Shown: in pieces, positions 54,390 through 63,246 of the stretch | Layout: each line of letters starts with the position of its first letter | Position numbering within the stretch: the stretch's first letter is position 1 | DNA from: an uncultured Candidatus Binatia bacterium | GTDB taxonomy: Bacteria > Desulfobacterota > Binatia > Bin18 | Direction: 5' to 3' | DNA length: 64,000 nt | Assembly (NCBI GenBank): GCA_965200965.1 | Contig: OZ241744.1 | Span: 2,976,001 to 3,040,000, forward strand | The notes under the pieces: model-generated | Told to the model about the DNA's origin: nothing | Seen by the model: only the letters and a program-made list of their open reading frames with translations | The model's database searches: none | Program-made: the position numbers and the translations under genes

Positions 54390-55442
54390 ATGCTGGAGGG
54401 CCTGCACATACGGAATTACCGCGTCTTCAACGACCTCACAGTTGACCATTTGAGGCGCATCAACCTTATTGCTGGCAAGAACAATGCCGGCAAGACAAGC
54501 CTGCTGGAGGCGATTTTTCTGCTGTCCGGGGCGGGGAATCCGCAAGTGGTGCCGACCATCATGAATTACCGCGGGATCGAGTCGGTGACTGGACCTCCGC
54601 AAACAGTAGGGGAAATCTTCTGGAAGCCGCTCTTCTCTGCGCTGGATATGAACAGGACCGTCGAAATCACCGGGCAGCATACATCCGCCGGTCCGCTGAC
54701 TCTGACAATCGTGTTGGATAAGCCCCACACCAGCGAACTGCCCCTTAATGCTCCCGTTGAGACGCACCTGGAAAACCTTTCCGGCGCATCCCAACTCACG
54801 CTTTCGTTCAGCAGCCACTCAACGGGAGAAGTCAAGGGTCACATGCGCGTGACCGGACAAGCGGTTCAGCTTGAGCCGCCTAATGTGGAATTGCCGTTTC
54901 CCGGAAGGTTTCTTATGTCTCGTGGGGGAAATCTCACAGCAGATGCCGGACTGCTGGGAAGGCTGAGACAACAGAAACAGGGCGAGCTCGTCCTGGAAGC
55001 ACTCCAAATCATTGAACCGAGACTGCAAAGCGTTGAGGACAATTCCGCCAGTGGCGCGCCCCTGATCTGGGGCGATATCGGCTTAGCCGAACTGATACCG
55101 CTGACGGTCATGGGCGAGGGCATGACCCGCATCGCCCGGCTGATCCTCGCCATAGCCTCCACGCCGGGCGGTGTTGTTCTGGTGGATGAGATCGAAAACG
55201 GCCTGCATCACTCTGTGCTGCCCAAGGTCTGGAAAGTCGTTGATACCGCGGCCAAGCGGTTCAACACCCAGATATTTGCGGCCACACACAGCTTTGAGTG
55301 CGCGGAGGCAGCGCATGAAGCCCTCTGCGCGGACGACTTTCGCCTGCACCGGCTTGAAGTCAGTGGCGCGGAGAACCGCTGCGTCACCTATGAGCCGGAG
55401 GAAATTGAGGTCGCGTTTCGACAGAATTTGGAGATCCGCTGA
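54390..55442 (+). CDS. ABC-type ATPase (AAA_15/AAA_21)
   Basis: GKNNAGKT, MGEG, VLVDEIENGLH, ATHS; GAGGAGG RBS. Confidence 0.88.
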   Translation: MLEGLHIRNYRVFNDLTVDHLRRINLIAGKNNAGKTSLLEAIFLLSGAGNPQVVPTIMNYRGIESVTGPPQTVGEIFWKPLFSALDMNRTVEITGQHTSAGPLTLTIVLDKPHTSELPLNAPVETHLENLSGASQLTLSFSSHSTGEVKGHMRVTGQAVQLEPPNVELPFPGRFLMSRGGNLTADAGLLGRLRQQKQGELVLEALQIIEPRLQSVEDNSASGAPLIWGDIGLAELIPLTVMGEGMTRIARLILAIASTPGGVVLVDEIENGLHHSVLPKVWKVVDTAAKRFNTQIFAATHSFECAEAAHEALCADDFRLHRLEVSGAENRCVTYEPEEIEVAFRQNLEIR

Positions 55443-55444
55443 AT

Positions 55445-56061
55445 ATGGCGCAACCAACAGAAATCAAATCCAGCTGCTTGTTGAGGGCAACGACCAGCGC
55501 AACTTTTTTGAGGCGTTCATTGACCATCTCTCGCTTACAGATGTTCAGGTTCAGAACTTTGGAGGCGTTGACGACCTGCGATCCTTCCTGTCAATACTTG
55601 TGAAAAGGCAAGGATTTCGTGACACTGTGCAGAGTGTCGGCATCGTCCGGGACGCGGAAACCTCCGCTCAGGCCGCGTTCCAAAGCGCTCAGTCTTCGTT
55701 GAGGAAGGCCGGGCTGGTCGTACCGAACCGGCCCGAAGAACGCGCCGGCAGCAGCCCGGCAGTGGCGGTGCTGATACTGCCCGACGGGAACCAGCCGGGG
55801 ATGCTCGAAACCTTGCTCTGCCAGAGCTTTGCGGGCGACCCGGAGGAAGCCTGCATTGATGACTTTTTCCGGTGCGTTGAGGCTTTGTCAGGCGTGTCTA
55901 TCCAACGCCCAGACAAGGCGCGTGCGCGAGCCTACTTGGCGACAAAGCCCGATCCGCACCTTTCCGTAGGCGTGGCGGCGAGGCGGAGCTACTGGAATCT
56001 CAACCATCCCGTTTTTGAGCGGATTCAGCAATTCCTCAGCCGGCTGTCGGCTTACGTCTGA
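55445..56061 (+). pseudogene. DUF3226-like TOPRIM protein, apparently frameshifted near its start
   Basis: LLVEGND, IVRDAE, GMLETL motifs; ATG 55445 (MAQPTEIK) is out of frame with them; stop TGA lies inside a REP. Confidence 0.65.
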
Positions 56062-56078
56062 CGGCTAAGCCGACCTAC
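56046..56078 (-). repeat. REP, right-type copy
   Basis: GTCGGCTTACGTCTGACGGCTAAGCCGACCTAC. Confidence 0.88.
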
Positions 56079-56098
56079 GACTGAACCCGGAGCAGGAT

Positions 56099-58678
56099 AT
56101 GGCGAGAGCAAGGAAGAAGGCCGCCAAGAACATTGAGGTCTACACCCACCCCGGCAAGGAGCGGGTGAACAACCCGCCGGTCGGCCTTGTGACGCCCGAC
56201 ACCGACAAGGACGCCGGCCGGCAGACCTACGCCTACGACCCGCATCTTGACCCGCAGTTGCAGTGGGCCGGCAAGGCCGAGCATACCGCATTTGTGGTAC
56301 CGACCGTCTCTCTGCATGTCCATGAGCGGATTGACCCCCAGGCCATCATTGAGGCCGTGCGCCGGCAGGGCGGCGGCGCGGACGACCCGCAGATGTCGAT
56401 GTTCTCCAGTCAGGAGGAGAACCCGCCCATCCGCAAAGCCATTGAGTTCTACCAGCACAAACATAAGTGGACCAACCGGCTGGTTGCCGGCGACAGCCTG
56501 CTGGTGATGAACAGCCTGCTGCAAAAAGAGCGCCTCGCCGGCCAAGTCCAGATGGTCTACTTGGACCCGCCCTACGGCATCCGCTACGGCTCGAACTTCC
56601 AGCCCTTCATCAACAAGCGCGATGTCAAAGACGGCAAAGACGAAGACCTGACCCAGGAGCCGGAGACCATCCGCGCCTTCCGCGACACCTGGGAACTGGG
56701 CATTCACTCCTACTTGGCCTACCTGCGCGACCGCCTGCTGCTGGCCCGCGAGCTGCTGACCGAGAGCGGCAGCTGCTTCGTGCAGATCAGCGATGAGAAT
56801 GTCCACTTGGTTCGCAATATGATGGATGAAATATTCGGCGTGACGAACTTCATGTCCCTGATCTCATTCAGAACAAAAATTCCGCTCAACGCTGCCCATC
56901 TTCCAAACATAGCCGATTACCTGATCTGGTACGCGAAGGACAAAACACGGGTCAAGTTCCATCGACTGTTTGGACCTCGGAACTATGGCGAGGACACGAT
57001 GTTTTCGTCTGCTCTCCTTCCTGACGGTAGCGTAGTCAAAGCTGGCGCGGTTCCCGGTGAACACAGGGGAGCGGCGCGTTACTTTAGTCTGATTGATTTG
57101 ATGGCGACCGGGTACACCGAATCCTGTCATTTTGAATTTGAGTTGGAGGGCCGACGCGCCTATCCCAATCCGACGACAAGTTGGAAAACCACGCCTGAAG
57201 GAATGGAAAAGCTCCTCATGGCTGAGCGCGTCCGTTGGCAAAGGACTGTTCCACGATATGTTTTTTATGCGGACGATTATCCGGTTATGGAGATGACCAA
57301 CCAGTGGACGGATACACAGGGGGCCAGCGGGAAAGCCTATGCAGTGCAAACGGCAGTCAAGGTTATCGAACGCTGCCTGCTGATGACCACCGACCCCGGA
57401 GACCTGGTCTTTGACCCGACCTGTGGAAGCGGCACGACCGCCTTTGTGGCCGAGCAGTGGGGCCGACGTTGGATCAGCTGCGACACCTCGCGCGTTGCCG
57501 TCACCCTGGCCCGGCAACGCCTGATGACCGCCAGCTTTGACTATTTTGAGCTCGCCCGCCCGGACGAAGGCGTGGGCGGCGGGTTTCGGTATAAGACCGT
57601 GCCGCATATCACCCTCGGCTCTATCGCCAATAACCCTGATATCACAGCAGGCATGACGCGCGACGCGATTGACGCCGCCATTGCCCGCCATGCACCACCA
57701 CAGGAAACGCTCTACGACCAGCCGTTCCGCAACACCAGAAAAGCCCGCGTCACCGGCCCGTTCACCGTTGAGGCGGTACCCGCGCCGGTTGTCAAAACGG
57801 TGGACGAACTGCTCGAGGGGGAGGACACGCCACGCGAGGCCGACAACTCGGTGGCCCGCTCTGGCGAGACGCTGCGTCAGGACGAGTGGCGGGACGAACT
57901 GCTGAAAACCGGCATTCGCGGCAAAGCCGGCCAGCGCATGGCCTTTGTCCGGCTCGAACCCCTGCCGGCGACACGTTGGCTGCACGCCGAGGGCGAAACC
58001 CGGCCCGAGGCCGCAGGGGCGGAGCGCAGCAGCGGTCGTGTGGTGGTGTCCTTCGGCCCGGACCATGCGCCCCTGGAGCAACGCCAAGTTGAACACGCCT
58101 GGGAGGAGGCCCGCAGCCTGCGCCCCAAACCGATGTTGCTGGTCTTTGCCGCGTTTCAGTTTGACCCCGAGGCGGCCAAGGATATTGACGAACTCAAACC
58201 TGAGCTGACCGGGATGCAGTTTCTCAAGGTCCAGATGAACGCCGACCTGCTGACCGATGACCTCAAGAAAAAGCGGGCCAGCAATGAGAGCTTCTGGCTC
58301 ATCGGCCAGCCGGATGTGGAGCTTGAGTAGGATGGGTCGGGTGCATATCGCGTCTCGGTGCTCGGCTTTGACTACTACAACACCAAGACCGGCGGGGTAG
58401 AGTCTGGCGGGGCGGACAAGATCGCCATGTGGCTGCTTGACCCCGATTATGACGGGCGCAGCCTCTTCCCTCGCCAGGTGTTTTTCCCCTGGGCCGACGG
58501 CCGCGACGGCTGGGCACGGCTGGCCCGCAGCCTCAAAGCCGAGATTGACCCCGAGCGGATTGAAGCCTACCGGGGCACGGTCTCGCTGCCCTTTACGCCG
58601 GGCATCCACCGCCGCATTGCCGTCAAGATCATTGACGACCGGGGGATTGAAAGCCTCAAGGTGGTGGAGATTGCCTAG
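56099..58678 (+). pseudogene. mod: Type III RM Mod subunit with in-frame TAG at 58328-58330
   Basis: YLDPPYG, QISDEN, FDPTCGSGTT; the same frame continues after TAG to IAVKIIDDRGIESLKV. Confidence 0.85.
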
Positions 58679-58705
58679 CCGTGGGAGGCAAAAGGAGATT
58701 ATCCA

Positions 58706-59536
58706 ATGGCAAAACCGATGAAGGCCCAGGCAATAGAGCGTCTACAGAAAGCACTGGATGCGATACCTGCATTAGAGGGATTGGACACTGATTCCCCGGA
58801 GTTCAAGAGGTGGTGGAGAAGCACAGAAATCGCTATCACCAACACATTCGGGGACGAATCATATCATATTCGGGAATTCTACGATACCGATTATTTTTCC
58901 TGCTTTGCTTCACCCCCTCCCGGGGAGAAGGAGAAAACCTTGAAATCAGCAACCGCACTACTCCAATCAATGATTGAGGAAGTCGAGGAGTATTGGGAAG
59001 AAGACACGGAGACAACAAAAGTGCCCAAAAAACTTAAATTACAGCAACCCGGGGAAGATCGGAAAAAAGAACATCAGCCTCCGCCGAACACCAGAGAAGT
59101 CTTCGTTATTCACGGAAGGGACGAGGCAGCCGAGCAAAAAGTGGTGAGATTTCTCGAAAAACTGGACCTCACGCCAGTGATATTGCACGAGCAGCCGAAC
59201 TAGGGCCAGACAATAATCGAGAAGTTCGAGCAACACGCGCAAGTCGGGTTTGCCGTGGCCCTGTTGACGCCGGACGATGGAGGCGCGCTTCAGGGTGAGG
59301 CGGAACATATCAAACCCCGTGCCAGACAGAATGTTGTGTTTGAGTTGGGGTATTTTCTCGGACGCCTTGGCCGAAAGCGGGTCTGTGCCCTGGTCAAAGG
59401 AATCCCAGAAATTCCGTCAGACTATGCCGGGGTGGTCTATATTCCACTGGATGATTACGGGGGCTGGGAGAGAAAACTTGTCAAAGAGCTAAAGGAAGCC
59501 GGCTTTGAGATTGATGCGAATCGTATAGTGGAGTGA
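58706..59536 (+). pseudogene. TIR-like nucleotide-binding protein (Cap12/Pycsar-type TIR) with in-frame TAG at 59201-59203
   Basis: VFVIHGRD...LHEQPN*GQTIIEKFE...LLTPDD...RARQNVVFELGYF...PSDYAG in one frame. Confidence 0.88.
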
Positions 59537-59576
59537 AGATAATGAGCGCCCATGTTGCCATTCTACAAGGCGGGGT

Positions 59577-59609
59577 GTCGGCTTACGCCTGACGGCTAAG
59601 CCGACCTAC
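59577..59609 (-). repeat. REP, right-type copy
   Basis: Identical to 28957-28989. Confidence 0.88.
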
Positions 59610-59630
59610 GATGACGGCCTAGGAAGCAGG

Positions 59631-59725
59631 ATGCCGAGCGTGACGATTGACCGGCTGATCATCAACCCGCCCTATGAGGAGCCGGGGCAACACTGGCAAT
59701 ACGACCGCGAGACGCGGCTGTTCGC
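59631..59725 (+). pseudogene. Duplicated 5' fragment of the res gene
   Basis: MPSVTIDRLIINPPYEEPGQHWQYDRETRLF versus MPSATIDRLIINSPYEEPGQHWQYDRETRLF at 60436. Confidence 0.9.
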
Positions 59726-59805: not shown

Positions 59806-60117
59806 ATGAGCAGTTTTGGCAAAAATTATGCTGAACTGTCTTCTGTTTGCAGCACCATTGCTGCCTTGCCAGATGCCCCTTACACCCTGTTACGGCCTAT
59901 TCCAGTCCGGCTGGAACCGGGGGAGGATGGGGGATGGATGGCACGTTTTGAGGAAGCGAATATCGGCATGTCGGGCGGTGATCCAGAAGACGCTCGGCAG
60001 ATGCTTACTGAGGACATTGTAGAGACCTTTGCGCTGTTCCTCGCGGAAGAAGCGACCTTAGGCCCCGGCCCTCAACGTCAACTCGCCGTGCTCAAGCAGT
60101 ACCTCCAGGTCTGCTGA
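59806..60117 (+). CDS. HicB-like antitoxin
   Basis: V-LE-GEDGGWMA...MSGGDPEDARQML pattern. Confidence 0.6.
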   Translation: MSSFGKNYAELSSVCSTIAALPDAPYTLLRPIPVRLEPGEDGGWMARFEEANIGMSGGDPEDARQMLTEDIVETFALFLAEEATLGPGPQRQLAVLKQYLQVC

Positions 60118-60435: not shown

Positions 60436-63246
60436 ATGCCGAGCGCGACGATTGACCGGCTCATCATCAACTCGCCCTATGAGGAGCCGGGGCAGCACTG
60501 GCAATATGACCGTGAGACGCGGCTGTTTGCGCTGACCGAGGGCCGCCGGCCGGCTGGCTATGTCGTGGCTTCGGGCAAGGCCGGGGCGTTTGATGACCCC
60601 GGCGTCTTTGTTGCAATCCCACTGGTCAACCAGATTCGCCCCCGCGTCAAAGCCTGGCGCGAAGCCGGCTGGCCCGGCGTGACCGCGGCCACGAGACGGC
60701 TGCTGACCCACTGGACCGACCCGGAGGAGTTCGAGACCCGACGCTTTTTCTTCTGTCAACTGGAGGCCGTGGAAACGCTGATCTGGCTGGCCGAGACGCC
60801 GGACGCCGCTGAGGAGCGAAGGCACCCCGGTCGAGAGGAAGGTGACACCTTCCCTCCTTCTGATGGCGGGGCGTTTCAACGCCTGTGCGCCAAAATGGCG
60901 ACCGGCTCCGGCAAGACAATTGTCATGGGCATGGTCATTGCCTGGCATGTGCTGAACAAAGTCGCCGCCCCGCAGGACCCACGGTTCTCGGCCCATGTCC
61001 TGATTACCGCTCCGGGGCTGACGGTCAAGAGCCGGCTGGCGGTCCTCAATCCGTCTCACCCGGACAACTATTATGAGGCGTTTCGCATTGTGCCGTCGGT
61101 GCTGCTCGACCGGCTGCGCCAGGGCAAGGTCCTGGTCCGCAACTGGCACGCCCTCAACTGGGAGACCGAGGACGCTATCGCCCGCAAGCGCAGCGTGGAC
61201 AGGCGCGGGGCCAAGAGCAATGAAGCCTATGCCCGGGCCGTGCTGGGTGAGCTGGCAGCAGCCCGCGGGCTGCTGGTCATCAATGACGAAGCCCATCACG
61301 CCTGGCGAGCGCCGGCCGGCACTAGGCTCAGGGGGGTTGCCAGGGACTCGGTTGAGGAAGCCACCAAATGGGTCGGCGGCCTTGACCGCATCCACGCGGC
61401 GCGGGGCATCCTGGCCTGCTATGACTTCTCGGCCACGCCTTTTGCGCCGACCGGCAGGCAGAGCGCTGAGGAAGGGCTGTTTGGCTGGATCGTCAGCGAT
61501 TTCGGGCTGAATGATGCGATTGAGGCTGGTTTGGTCAAAACCCCGCGGGTGGTCATCCGGGACGATGCTGTGCTCGACGCCAGGACCTACCGGTCCCGGC
61601 TGTATCATCTCTACAATGATCCAGAGGTTAAGGACGATCTGAACCGGCCGGCCGGGCCGGAGGTCCCGCTGCCCGACCTGGTGCTCAACGGCTATGCGCT
61701 GCTCGGCTATGACTGGCGGGAGACGGCCAGGGCGTGGCGGCGAGACGGGTTTGCGACCCCGCCGGTGATGATTACGGTGGCTAACCGTACCGAGACCGCG
61801 GCCCGCATCAAGTACGCCTTTGACCAGCGGAGAATCCACATTGAGGAGCTGTGCGACCCCCGGTACACGCTGCACATTGACTCAAAAGCCTTGGAGGCTG
61901 CGGAGGCTGCGGAGGAGCCGGTGGCTGCTCTCGGTGAGGGTGACGGACGCAGGCTGAGCAGAAAGGAACAGGCCGAGCTCCTGCGCCGGCAGGTAGATAC
62001 GGTGGGCCAAGCCGGCAAGCCCGGCGAGCGGGTACATAACGTCATTTCGGTCGGTATGTTGTCTGAGGGCTGGGACGCCAGGACCGTCACCCACATCATG
62101 GGCCTGCGGGCCTTCAGCAGCCAGTTGTTGTGTGAACAGGTGGTCGGCCGCGGCCTGCGCCGGACCTCCTATGAGATTGATGTGGACGGGCGGTTCAAGC
62201 CGGAGTATGTCAACATTTTCGGCGTGCCGTTCACCTTCCTGCCCCACGAGTCCGGGGACGGCTCTCCACTGCCGCCCGAGTCAAAGCCGGTGGTTGAGCC
62301 GCTGGCCGACAGGGCCGGCTTTGCCATACGCTGGCCGCATATCATCCGCATTGACCATGTGCTGCGGCCGCGGCTGACCCTGGATTGGGAGGCGGTCCCG
62401 GCCCTTGAGCTCAACGCCAGCCAGACTGTGCAACTGGCTGAACTGGCCCCGACCGTTGACGGCAAGCCTGACATGAGCGGCATCGCGGCTATTGAACTGG
62501 AATACTTGGCCCGGGAGTTTCGCACCCAGCGTATCATCTTTGAAGCCGCCCGTGAGGTGTACGACCAGATGCACAAGAACTGGCCGGGGAGCAAGGAGGT
62601 ACTGCTGGCCCAACTCGTGGGACTGGCCCAGCAGTTCATCCGCTCTGGTCCTATCCGCCTCACCCCGGCCCTGTTTCAGCAGGACGCCCTGAAAAGACGC
62701 CTGCTTATCACCCTGAATATGACCAGGCTGGTCCAGCATATCTGGGAGGCGATCCGTTTTGAGAACACCGACAGGCTGGTGCCGGTCTTTGACCGTGACC
62801 AGCCTGTTCGCTCAACCGGCGATATGGCCCCCTGGCATACGGGCAAGCCGTGGGCCTGTACTGCCCGCAGCCATATCAACCGCTGTGTCCATGACGGGGC
62901 CTGGGAGGCGTCTGAAGCCTGGGAGTTGGACAACAACCCGTTGGTAGCCGCCTGGGTGAAAAATGACCATCTGGGCTTTGAGGTGTGCTATGTCTATCGT
63001 GGCGTGGTGGGCAAGTACCGGCCCGATTTTCTCATCCGGCTCAGCGCGGGTACTATGCTGGTTCTGGAGACCAAGGGCCGGGACAGTGAGCGGGAGCGGA
63101 CCAAACGCCGCTTTCTTGATGAGTGGGTGAGAGCCGTTAATGCCCACCGCGGCTTTGGCCGCTGGTCCTGGGACGTGTCCACCAACCCCGGCGATGTCAA
63201 GGATATTCTCGTCCGCCACGCTCGTCGTGAGGGAAGGGAAGCGTGA
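60436..63246 (+). CDS. res: Type III RM Res subunit (SF2 helicase + nuclease)
   Basis: FCQLEAVET, KMATGSGKT, INDEAHH, FSATP, EGWD, EQVVGRGLR, YRPDFL...LETKG. Confidence 0.92.
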   Translation: MPSATIDRLIINSPYEEPGQHWQYDRETRLFALTEGRRPAGYVVASGKAGAFDDPGVFVAIPLVNQIRPRVKAWREAGWPGVTAATRRLLTHWTDPEEFETRRFFFCQLEAVETLIWLAETPDAAEERRHPGREEGDTFPPSDGGAFQRLCAKMATGSGKTIVMGMVIAWHVLNKVAAPQDPRFSAHVLITAPGLTVKSRLAVLNPSHPDNYYEAFRIVPSVLLDRLRQGKVLVRNWHALNWETEDAIARKRSVDRRGAKSNEAYARAVLGELAAARGLLVINDEAHHAWRAPAGTRLRGVARDSVEEATKWVGGLDRIHAARGILACYDFSATPFAPTGRQSAEEGLFGWIVSDFGLNDAIEAGLVKTPRVVIRDDAVLDARTYRSRLYHLYNDPEVKDDLNRPAGPEVPLPDLVLNGYALLGYDWRETARAWRRDGFATPPVMITVANRTETAARIKYAFDQRRIHIEELCDPRYTLHIDSKALEAAEAAEEPVAALGEGDGRRLSRKEQAELLRRQVDTVGQAGKPGERVHNVISVGMLSEGWDARTVTHIMGLRAFSSQLLCEQVVGRGLRRTSYEIDVDGRFKPEYVNIFGVPFTFLPHESGDGSPLPPESKPVVEPLADRAGFAIRWPHIIRIDHVLRPRLTLDWEAVPALELNASQTVQLAELAPTVDGKPDMSGIAAIELEYLAREFRTQRIIFEAAREVYDQMHKNWPGSKEVLLAQLVGLAQQFIRSGPIRLTPALFQQDALKRRLLITLNMTRLVQHIWEAIRFENTDRLVPVFDRDQPVRSTGDMAPWHTGKPWACTARSHINRCVHDGAWEASEAWELDNNPLVAAWVKNDHLGFEVCYVYRGVVGKYRPDFLIRLSAGTMLVLETKGRDSERERTKRRFLDEWVRAVNAHRGFGRWSWDVSTNPGDVKDILVRHARREGREA

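Follow-up and report, generated by a model that had tools for sequence, protein, structure and literature searches.

Two neighboring genes of a putative defense locus in the genome of an uncultured Candidatus Binatia bacterium are each interrupted by one in-frame amber codon, which raises the question of whether these codons are ordinary nonsense mutations or part of a switch that depends on how TAG is decoded. The locus lies in a stretch of 64,000 nucleotides (contig OZ241744.1, positions 2,976,001 to 3,040,000; hereafter the window, whose own numbering is used below). A first-pass annotation of this stretch, made from the letters alone, had proposed either two recent nonsense mutations or a defense gated by readthrough. 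We conclude, with a probability of roughly 0.93, that both TAGs are recent, ordinary C-to-T nonsense mutations in a dispensable defense island that is likely decaying in one strain.

Gene content of the locus

All features described here are on the forward strand. An intact gene for an AAA_21 ATPase of 350 aa (54390..55442; PADLOC PDC-M38A/AbiLi-like), whose product has no private residue changes relative to the 11 other members of its cluster, is followed by a DUF3226 gene (55445..56061; PADLOC PDC-M38B-like) with a predicted 7-nt frameshift deletion between the ATG at 55445 and the LLVEG codons at 55474. The type III mod gene (56099..58678; Pfam PF01555; PADLOC MTase_III) specifies an N6-adenine methyltransferase of 859 codons with readthrough and 743 aa as encoded, the premature TAG being codon 744 (58328..58330), where other strains have CAG (Gln). 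A stand-alone TIR gene of the Cap12/Pycsar type (58706..59536; PADLOC PDC-S35; Pfam PF10137; Cap12 9lmq) comprises 276 codons with readthrough and encodes 165 aa, with its premature TAG at codon 166 (59201..59203), again CAG (Gln) in other strains. The interval between TIR and res holds two small ORFs that resemble a toxin-antitoxin pair, and an orphan duplicate (99 nt, 92%) of the res 5' end lies at 59627..59725. The type III res gene (60436..63246) has three private missense changes.

As first read, the stops stand in the contexts GAG-TAG-GAT (mod) and AAC-TAG-GGC (TIR), 873 bp apart, with both frames open to their normal ends and the res frame open over 936 aa. The mod stop takes away 116 residues and leaves the DPPY and CGSG SAM motifs upstream. 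The TIR stop precedes the FELG motif, lying 47 codons upstream of the catalytic-type Glu213 (R207-x-N209-x-x-x-E213; codon at 59342..59344). The gene identities given in the first-pass annotation (type III mod and res, Cap12-type TIR) were upheld by Pfam, PADLOC and fold matches. A beta-class Mod (DPPY plus SAM-binding motif) stands beside a helicase-nuclease Res, as in type III restriction-modification systems, and the best fold match of Mod is EcoP15I Mod (4zcf), while the family matches of Res are weak (PF04851, E 5.5e-6; REase_III, E 6.5e-7). The locus resembles EcoP15I Mod2Res1, as described in PMC4490356, in its mod-res order, beta-class N6 methylase and helicase-nuclease Res, but differs in the long, 859-aa Mod subfamily, the extra C-terminal beta domain and the cargo between mod and res.

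Reality, distribution and origin of the two TAG codons

The TAGs are real: assembled contigs from two runs of one sample (X1 and X2) match the window, with no other letter at either site. One X1 contig (57893-59605; depth 45.9) bridges both stops, and two X2 contigs (57369-58403 and 58857-59539) cover the mod and TIR stops, respectively. Since the assembly may have been built from these very runs, the comparison tests base calling and not sampling; overall, 8 of 16 runs were compared, all as assembled contigs, from which rare variants are dropped. Sequencing or assembly errors could be suspected from the single-contig assembly, its 5.7% estimated contamination and the CAG found in every other strain, but the unanimity of the two runs at both sites makes it very improbable that the TAGs are artifacts.

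Outside this sample, the codons are sense. All six of the other runs (X3, X4, X6, X7, X8, and X11, representing 6 samples from 3 studies; X3, X4, and X6 are recorded as sponge metagenome) have C at both 58328 and 59201, and thus CAG. The only short protein among the 10 members of the Mod 90% cluster is that of the window itself, all 11 same-species-like Mods carry Gln744, and each of the three TIRs carries Gln166. A congener with about 91% protein identity (G007) has a syntenic locus in which mod and TIR are both open, and its TIR gene reads AAC-CAG-GGC. None of the nine TIR matches among 40 relatives has an internal stop, and none of 80 wider TIR homologues stops at the codon 166 site, with one stopping elsewhere. 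All 120 Mod homologues reach residue 850, a count biased by their having been retrieved using the C-terminal region. The one observation that may speak against a fully private TIR stop is a 93-aa protein of the TIR tail, which is recorded from two contigs. In other kin the locus is missing or partial (G005 has a TIR fragment only, and G001, G003, and G004 have no TIR match), that is, it comes and goes.

The conservation check proposed by the first-pass annotation therefore found private TAGs and sense codons in the relatives, the outcome that it had set against gating. Each TAG is private and a single-base change away from a conserved sense codon in an otherwise open frame, as is expected of a young nonsense pseudogene. 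Single C-to-T changes in one strain would have converted CAG to TAG at mod codon 744 and TIR codon 166, and the suggestion of two recent nonsense mutations is borne out by the private C-to-T differences and by CAG in the six other runs.

The choice of amber requires little explanation. The genome is 61% GC and TAG makes up 61% of the single-transition nonsense targets; GC-to-AT transitions have CAG and TGG as their most frequent targets in the genome, which explains why amber arose twice. Given two transition nonsense hits in the codons of mod and TIR, the probability that both are TAG is about 0.33. Since G follows 40% of the in-frame CAG codons in these genes, two TAGs each followed by G are not above chance. 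The +4 G is inherited: no run differs there, and the congener also has G at this position in TIR. In a GC-rich genome, nonsense mutation is thus expected to give amber, and the TAG pair is no sign of recoding.

We also considered the sequence context of the mutated bases. In TIR the mutated base is the inner (second) C of CCAGG, described as the classic amber hot spot of Escherichia coli lacI (Coulondre et al., 1978, via PMC12606429). In codon-controlled counts comparing the host genome (G000, genome-wide) with 1.58 Mb of G007, transitions at CCWGG were 1.6-1.9-fold up in the host, while the context of the mod site, GCAGG, was at about 0.5-fold and is no hot spot. A common methylation hot spot for both ambers is excluded, as CCWGG is found only at the TIR site, and a hot spot accounts for one of the two stops at most. 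The two stops are like the lacI ambers described in PMC12606429 in being CAG-to-TAG, C-to-T changes in dispensable genes, with the TIR change at the second C of CCAGG; they are unlike them in the GCAGG context of the mod site and in a CCWGG excess of just 1.6-1.9-fold, via a putative methylase.

In the same comparison, synonymous C-to-T and G-to-A differences were 3-4 times up at ACGT and TCGA relative to the same codons elsewhere, and ACGT is depleted in the host genome (O/E 0.49). Three C5 methylases are encoded in this genome. The transition excesses at ACGT, TCGA and CCWGG are likely footprints of 5-methylcytosine.

Decoding of TAG in the host and the case for an amber-gated defense

The search for amber-decoding genes suggested by the first-pass annotation gave nothing in the host genome (99.3% complete). 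Neither the 51 intron-less ARAGORN calls nor the 47 Rfam tRNAs included one with a CUA anticodon, and relaxed ARAGORN settings returned only intron-containing or noise-level amber-tRNA candidates, including three "Pyl" calls at relaxed score among 1234 noise calls that were absent from the Rfam hits. PylS had no match and PylB none over the cut-off, which excludes pyrrolysine; in five of five relatives no PylS was over the cut-off either. The RF1 gene is intact, and TAG terminates 892 of 2877 called genes and 698 of 2456 long frames (about 30%). TAG is thus an ordinary stop genome-wide, and genome-wide recoding is excluded. No stimulatory hairpin was found 3' of either stop (folding z -0.6 to +0.4; 60 and 100 nt, 200 shuffles). 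The genome therefore has no recorded means of decoding TAG, and RF1 would terminate translation at both codons.

Several other genes of the host (G000:C1, at 666533, 2190127, 2802149, 1317401, 981188, and 3480320) have an in-frame TGA in cysteine-like motifs (D*GSCSSC, NW*PYC, PV*PLC) that are common to paralogues. Because the genome has a tRNA-Sec, these are probably selenoproteins.

Some phages recode TAG or carry suppressor tRNAs. The second reading of the first-pass annotation was that Mod and TIR stay silent until such a phage, by suppressing or recoding TAG, yields full-length proteins. If true, the amber lock would be a defense that senses the genetic code of its invader, and conserved TAGs would have meant a new sensing principle in which defense is armed by the phage's own code change. 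Two ambers in adjacent defense genes with open downstream frames speak for this idea, as does the single frame of 1145 codons that covers mod and TIR when TAG is read through. The normal stop of mod (58676-58705 region) is itself TAG and in frame with the TIR start nine codons on, so that full suppression would fuse Mod to TIR. However, only one sample has the TAGs, inheritance accounts for the open frames and the +4 G, and the 80 TIR homologues lack a stop at the site. In the congener, mod ends in TGA and an insert separates it from TIR. The host offers neither a suppressor tRNA or Pyl system nor a signal hairpin, and the adjoining DUF3226 gene, whose predicted lesion is a frameshift and not nonsense, would therefore be beyond repair by amber suppression. 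With sense codons in the relatives, no amber decoding in the host and a predicted frameshift next door, the proposal of a readthrough-gated defense did not hold up and has, in our judgment, hardly any chance of being correct. The same is true of a new, strain-specific amber lock that an amber-suppressing phage would re-arm, possibly as a Mod-TIR fusion, to which we give next to no weight.

The in-frame TAG is the only feature that this locus has in common with TAG-recoding or suppressor phages and with pyrrolysine insertion; in contrast to those systems, the TAGs here are unconserved, both tRNA-CUA and PylS are lacking, and TAG serves as a regular stop. We found no account of amber-gated defense in the literature, as judged from titles and the starts of abstracts. 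Such a defense would be new if true, and the locus gives it no support; it is a useful negative for sequence scans that seek recoding.

A probable third lesion and the likely decay of the island

The statement of the first-pass annotation that no other lesion is visible does not stand, given the DUF3226 gene upstream of mod and also the 99-nt orphan res copy. The DUF3226 ATG is 29 nt 5' of the LLVEG codons and out of frame with them, as compared to 36 nt in all 11 other members of the two nearest clusters. These have a Met exactly 12 residues ahead of LLVEG, and one member shows no further difference from the window protein. Taken at face value, the window copy thus appears to carry a 7-nt frameshift deletion, which probably arose by slippage at a short tandem repeat. 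An ATG further upstream, inside the preceding gene, keeps the DUF3226 domain frame open, and some product may remain. A pattern scan of metagenome contigs gave no match to the DUF3226 junction, and the window's own copy was the only one in the examined loci. At face value, then, three consecutive defense genes would carry one lesion each, one of which is not amber.

The TIR stop splits the PF10137 match, and once read through the protein matches PDC-S35 over residues 7-274. The spacing of R207, N209 and E213 equals that of R78, N80 and E84, given in PMC9402430 as the TIR active-site residues of SfSTING. A 165-aa TIR without the catalytic-type Glu, and hence without an NADase site, would be inactive. 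The gene is like the PDC-S35/Cap12-Pycsar TIRs (SfSTING, as presented in PMC9402430) in its full-length PDC-S35 match, if read through, and in the R-x-N-x-x-x-E spacing; unlike in Cap12-Pycsar systems, the TIR of the window is cut at codon 166 and the locus has no cyclase or STING domain. We found no literature that names PDC-S35.

The consequence of the mod stop is less clear-cut. The 115 residues 3' of the stop match positions 875-983 of the 983-position MTase_III profile, and the lost tail is highly conserved. When a natural full-length relative was modeled (mean pLDDT 58.6), the position of the stop mapped to the turn that links strands one and two (733-744 and 750-761) of the last predicted beta domain, for which a fold search gave no name; a predicted alpha/beta domain at about 594-725 is kept. 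On this model the 743-aa Mod would retain the methylase motifs and lose nearly all of the last, family-conserved beta domain, and the restriction complex is probably impaired as a result. The shortened Mod may still methylate, or even support restriction.

One could argue that the mod stop is tolerated, with the 743-aa Mod methylating and perhaps recruiting Res, so that only TIR (and DUF3226) would be dead; this concerns the consequence of the mutation and not its origin. Both methylase motifs and the target-recognition region lie 5' of the stop, the alpha/beta domain is kept, and codon 744 is in a variable loop that accommodates inserts of about 150 residues in two relatives (G014 and G020). 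On the other hand, the stop falls within the last predicted domain, after its first strand, the conserved tail belongs to the family profile, and no Shine-Dalgarno-like site is visible by eye before possible restart codons. Moreover, the C-terminal domain of one EcoP15I Mod touches Res according to PMC4490356, although its equivalence to the tail discussed here is putative. We therefore consider a tolerated mod stop possible but doubtful.

The inserts in this loop are of interest in their own right. They measure 470-500 nt in G020 (L010:3794-4291) and G014 (L011:1051-1518) and differ in sequence, yet each holds a complete 23S_rRNA_IVP four-helix-bundle gene in the +1 frame (PF05635, E 1e-39 and 2e-34). 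The mod frame is open throughout the insert in both genomes, and each mod gene is split at another place.

That res is intact next to a damaged mod calls for no particular explanation, because only Mod recognizes DNA in type III systems, and PMC3488263 describes a solitary Res as safe. If mod was lost first, this would do no harm, since a type III Res cannot recognize DNA without Mod. Besides EcoP15I, the broken or solitary type III systems of that account are the nearest known counterparts.

To place the lesions in a genome-wide context, we compared 1151 orthologue-like genes with 80 stretches of G007 (about 1.58 of 3.6 Mb). Of six raw internal stops in the host, four were discarded by hand because they reflected shadow frames, a start called too far upstream or the regular end of a gene, which left two credible cases: the mod TAG and a TGG-to-TAG change at 2310476. 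The uncurated count of raw internal stops in G007 was 14 (7 TGA, 5 TAG, and 2 TAA). A comparison of paralogues added three stops in the host that were picked by eye, a TAG (3522078), a TAA (3568516) and a TGA (346837). The examples were chosen with the help of a dicodon-score scan, used for this purpose only, which missed the TIR stop and whose 548 candidates (79 with a paralogue across the stop) were mostly antisense shadows and gene boundaries. Nonsense in the host genome is scattered and mixed in kind, and is not recoding.

With 2 credible cases in 1151 genes, the double hit in adjacent genes is more than a rate uniform across the genome would give. Internal stops are rare across the genome, so that a cluster of two to three must have a cause specific to the locus: either the first hit relaxed selection on the rest, or loss itself was selected. 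Under drift, the probability of at least two nonsense changes among 8-12 private changes is 0.05-0.10. The ratio of nonsynonymous to synonymous changes is 8:1 for private and 22:9 for shared differences, which is not significant (P = 0.40; 40 of the 125 differences listed). Mod has 1 private residue (0-4 in the other 11 same-species-like sequences), TIR has 10 (2-7 in others) and Res has 3 (mostly 0-1 in others, with two outliers at 14 and 18). Because the relaxed-selection contrast is non-significant and Mod does not exceed the other sequences in private residues, the lesions appear to be very recent. The three missense changes in Res are at residues where the congener keeps the consensus, a weak hint in the same direction, toward decay.

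The same mutations might have been favored by selection, if the island is costly (through autoimmunity, NAD+ depletion or a barrier to useful DNA) and knock-outs swept. This is compatible with the origin of the TAGs proposed here. Three adjacent genes each with one null-type lesion, few other private changes in Mod and the low probability under drift all point this way; however, the pattern is seen in one strain only, polarity or a first loss of function would free the neighbors from selection without any benefit, and the other kin named above likewise have only part of the locus or none of it. We regard selected loss as unlikely. Nonsense pseudogenes of this sort are already known, and ordinary turnover of a defense locus is the most likely explanation of these recent C-to-T mutations. 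The window would thus give a snapshot of one strain losing three adjacent defense genes that its relatives keep, as part of normal accessory-locus turnover.

The surroundings of mod vary in other ways. A 35-nt hairpin element with three close copies in the genome occurs both in the gap between DUF3226 and mod (56046-56080) and 3' of TIR (59577-59611), and two same-species-like proteins of 1067 aa (P0126 and P0130) are DUF3226-Mod fusions across the DUF3226/mod junction. Run X7 has 468 additional letters at 59853, between TIR and res, and in G007 a second copy of the mod 3' end (L130:12006-12269) takes the place of the orphan res 5' copy of the window. Exchange of cargo in the mod-res interval seems to be frequent. 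Within Mod, two proteins (P0001 and P0003) have 98% identity to the window protein over residues 560-859 and a different middle region, and residues about 235-545 (window 56800-57730) represent a putative exchange of the target-recognition domain within the species.
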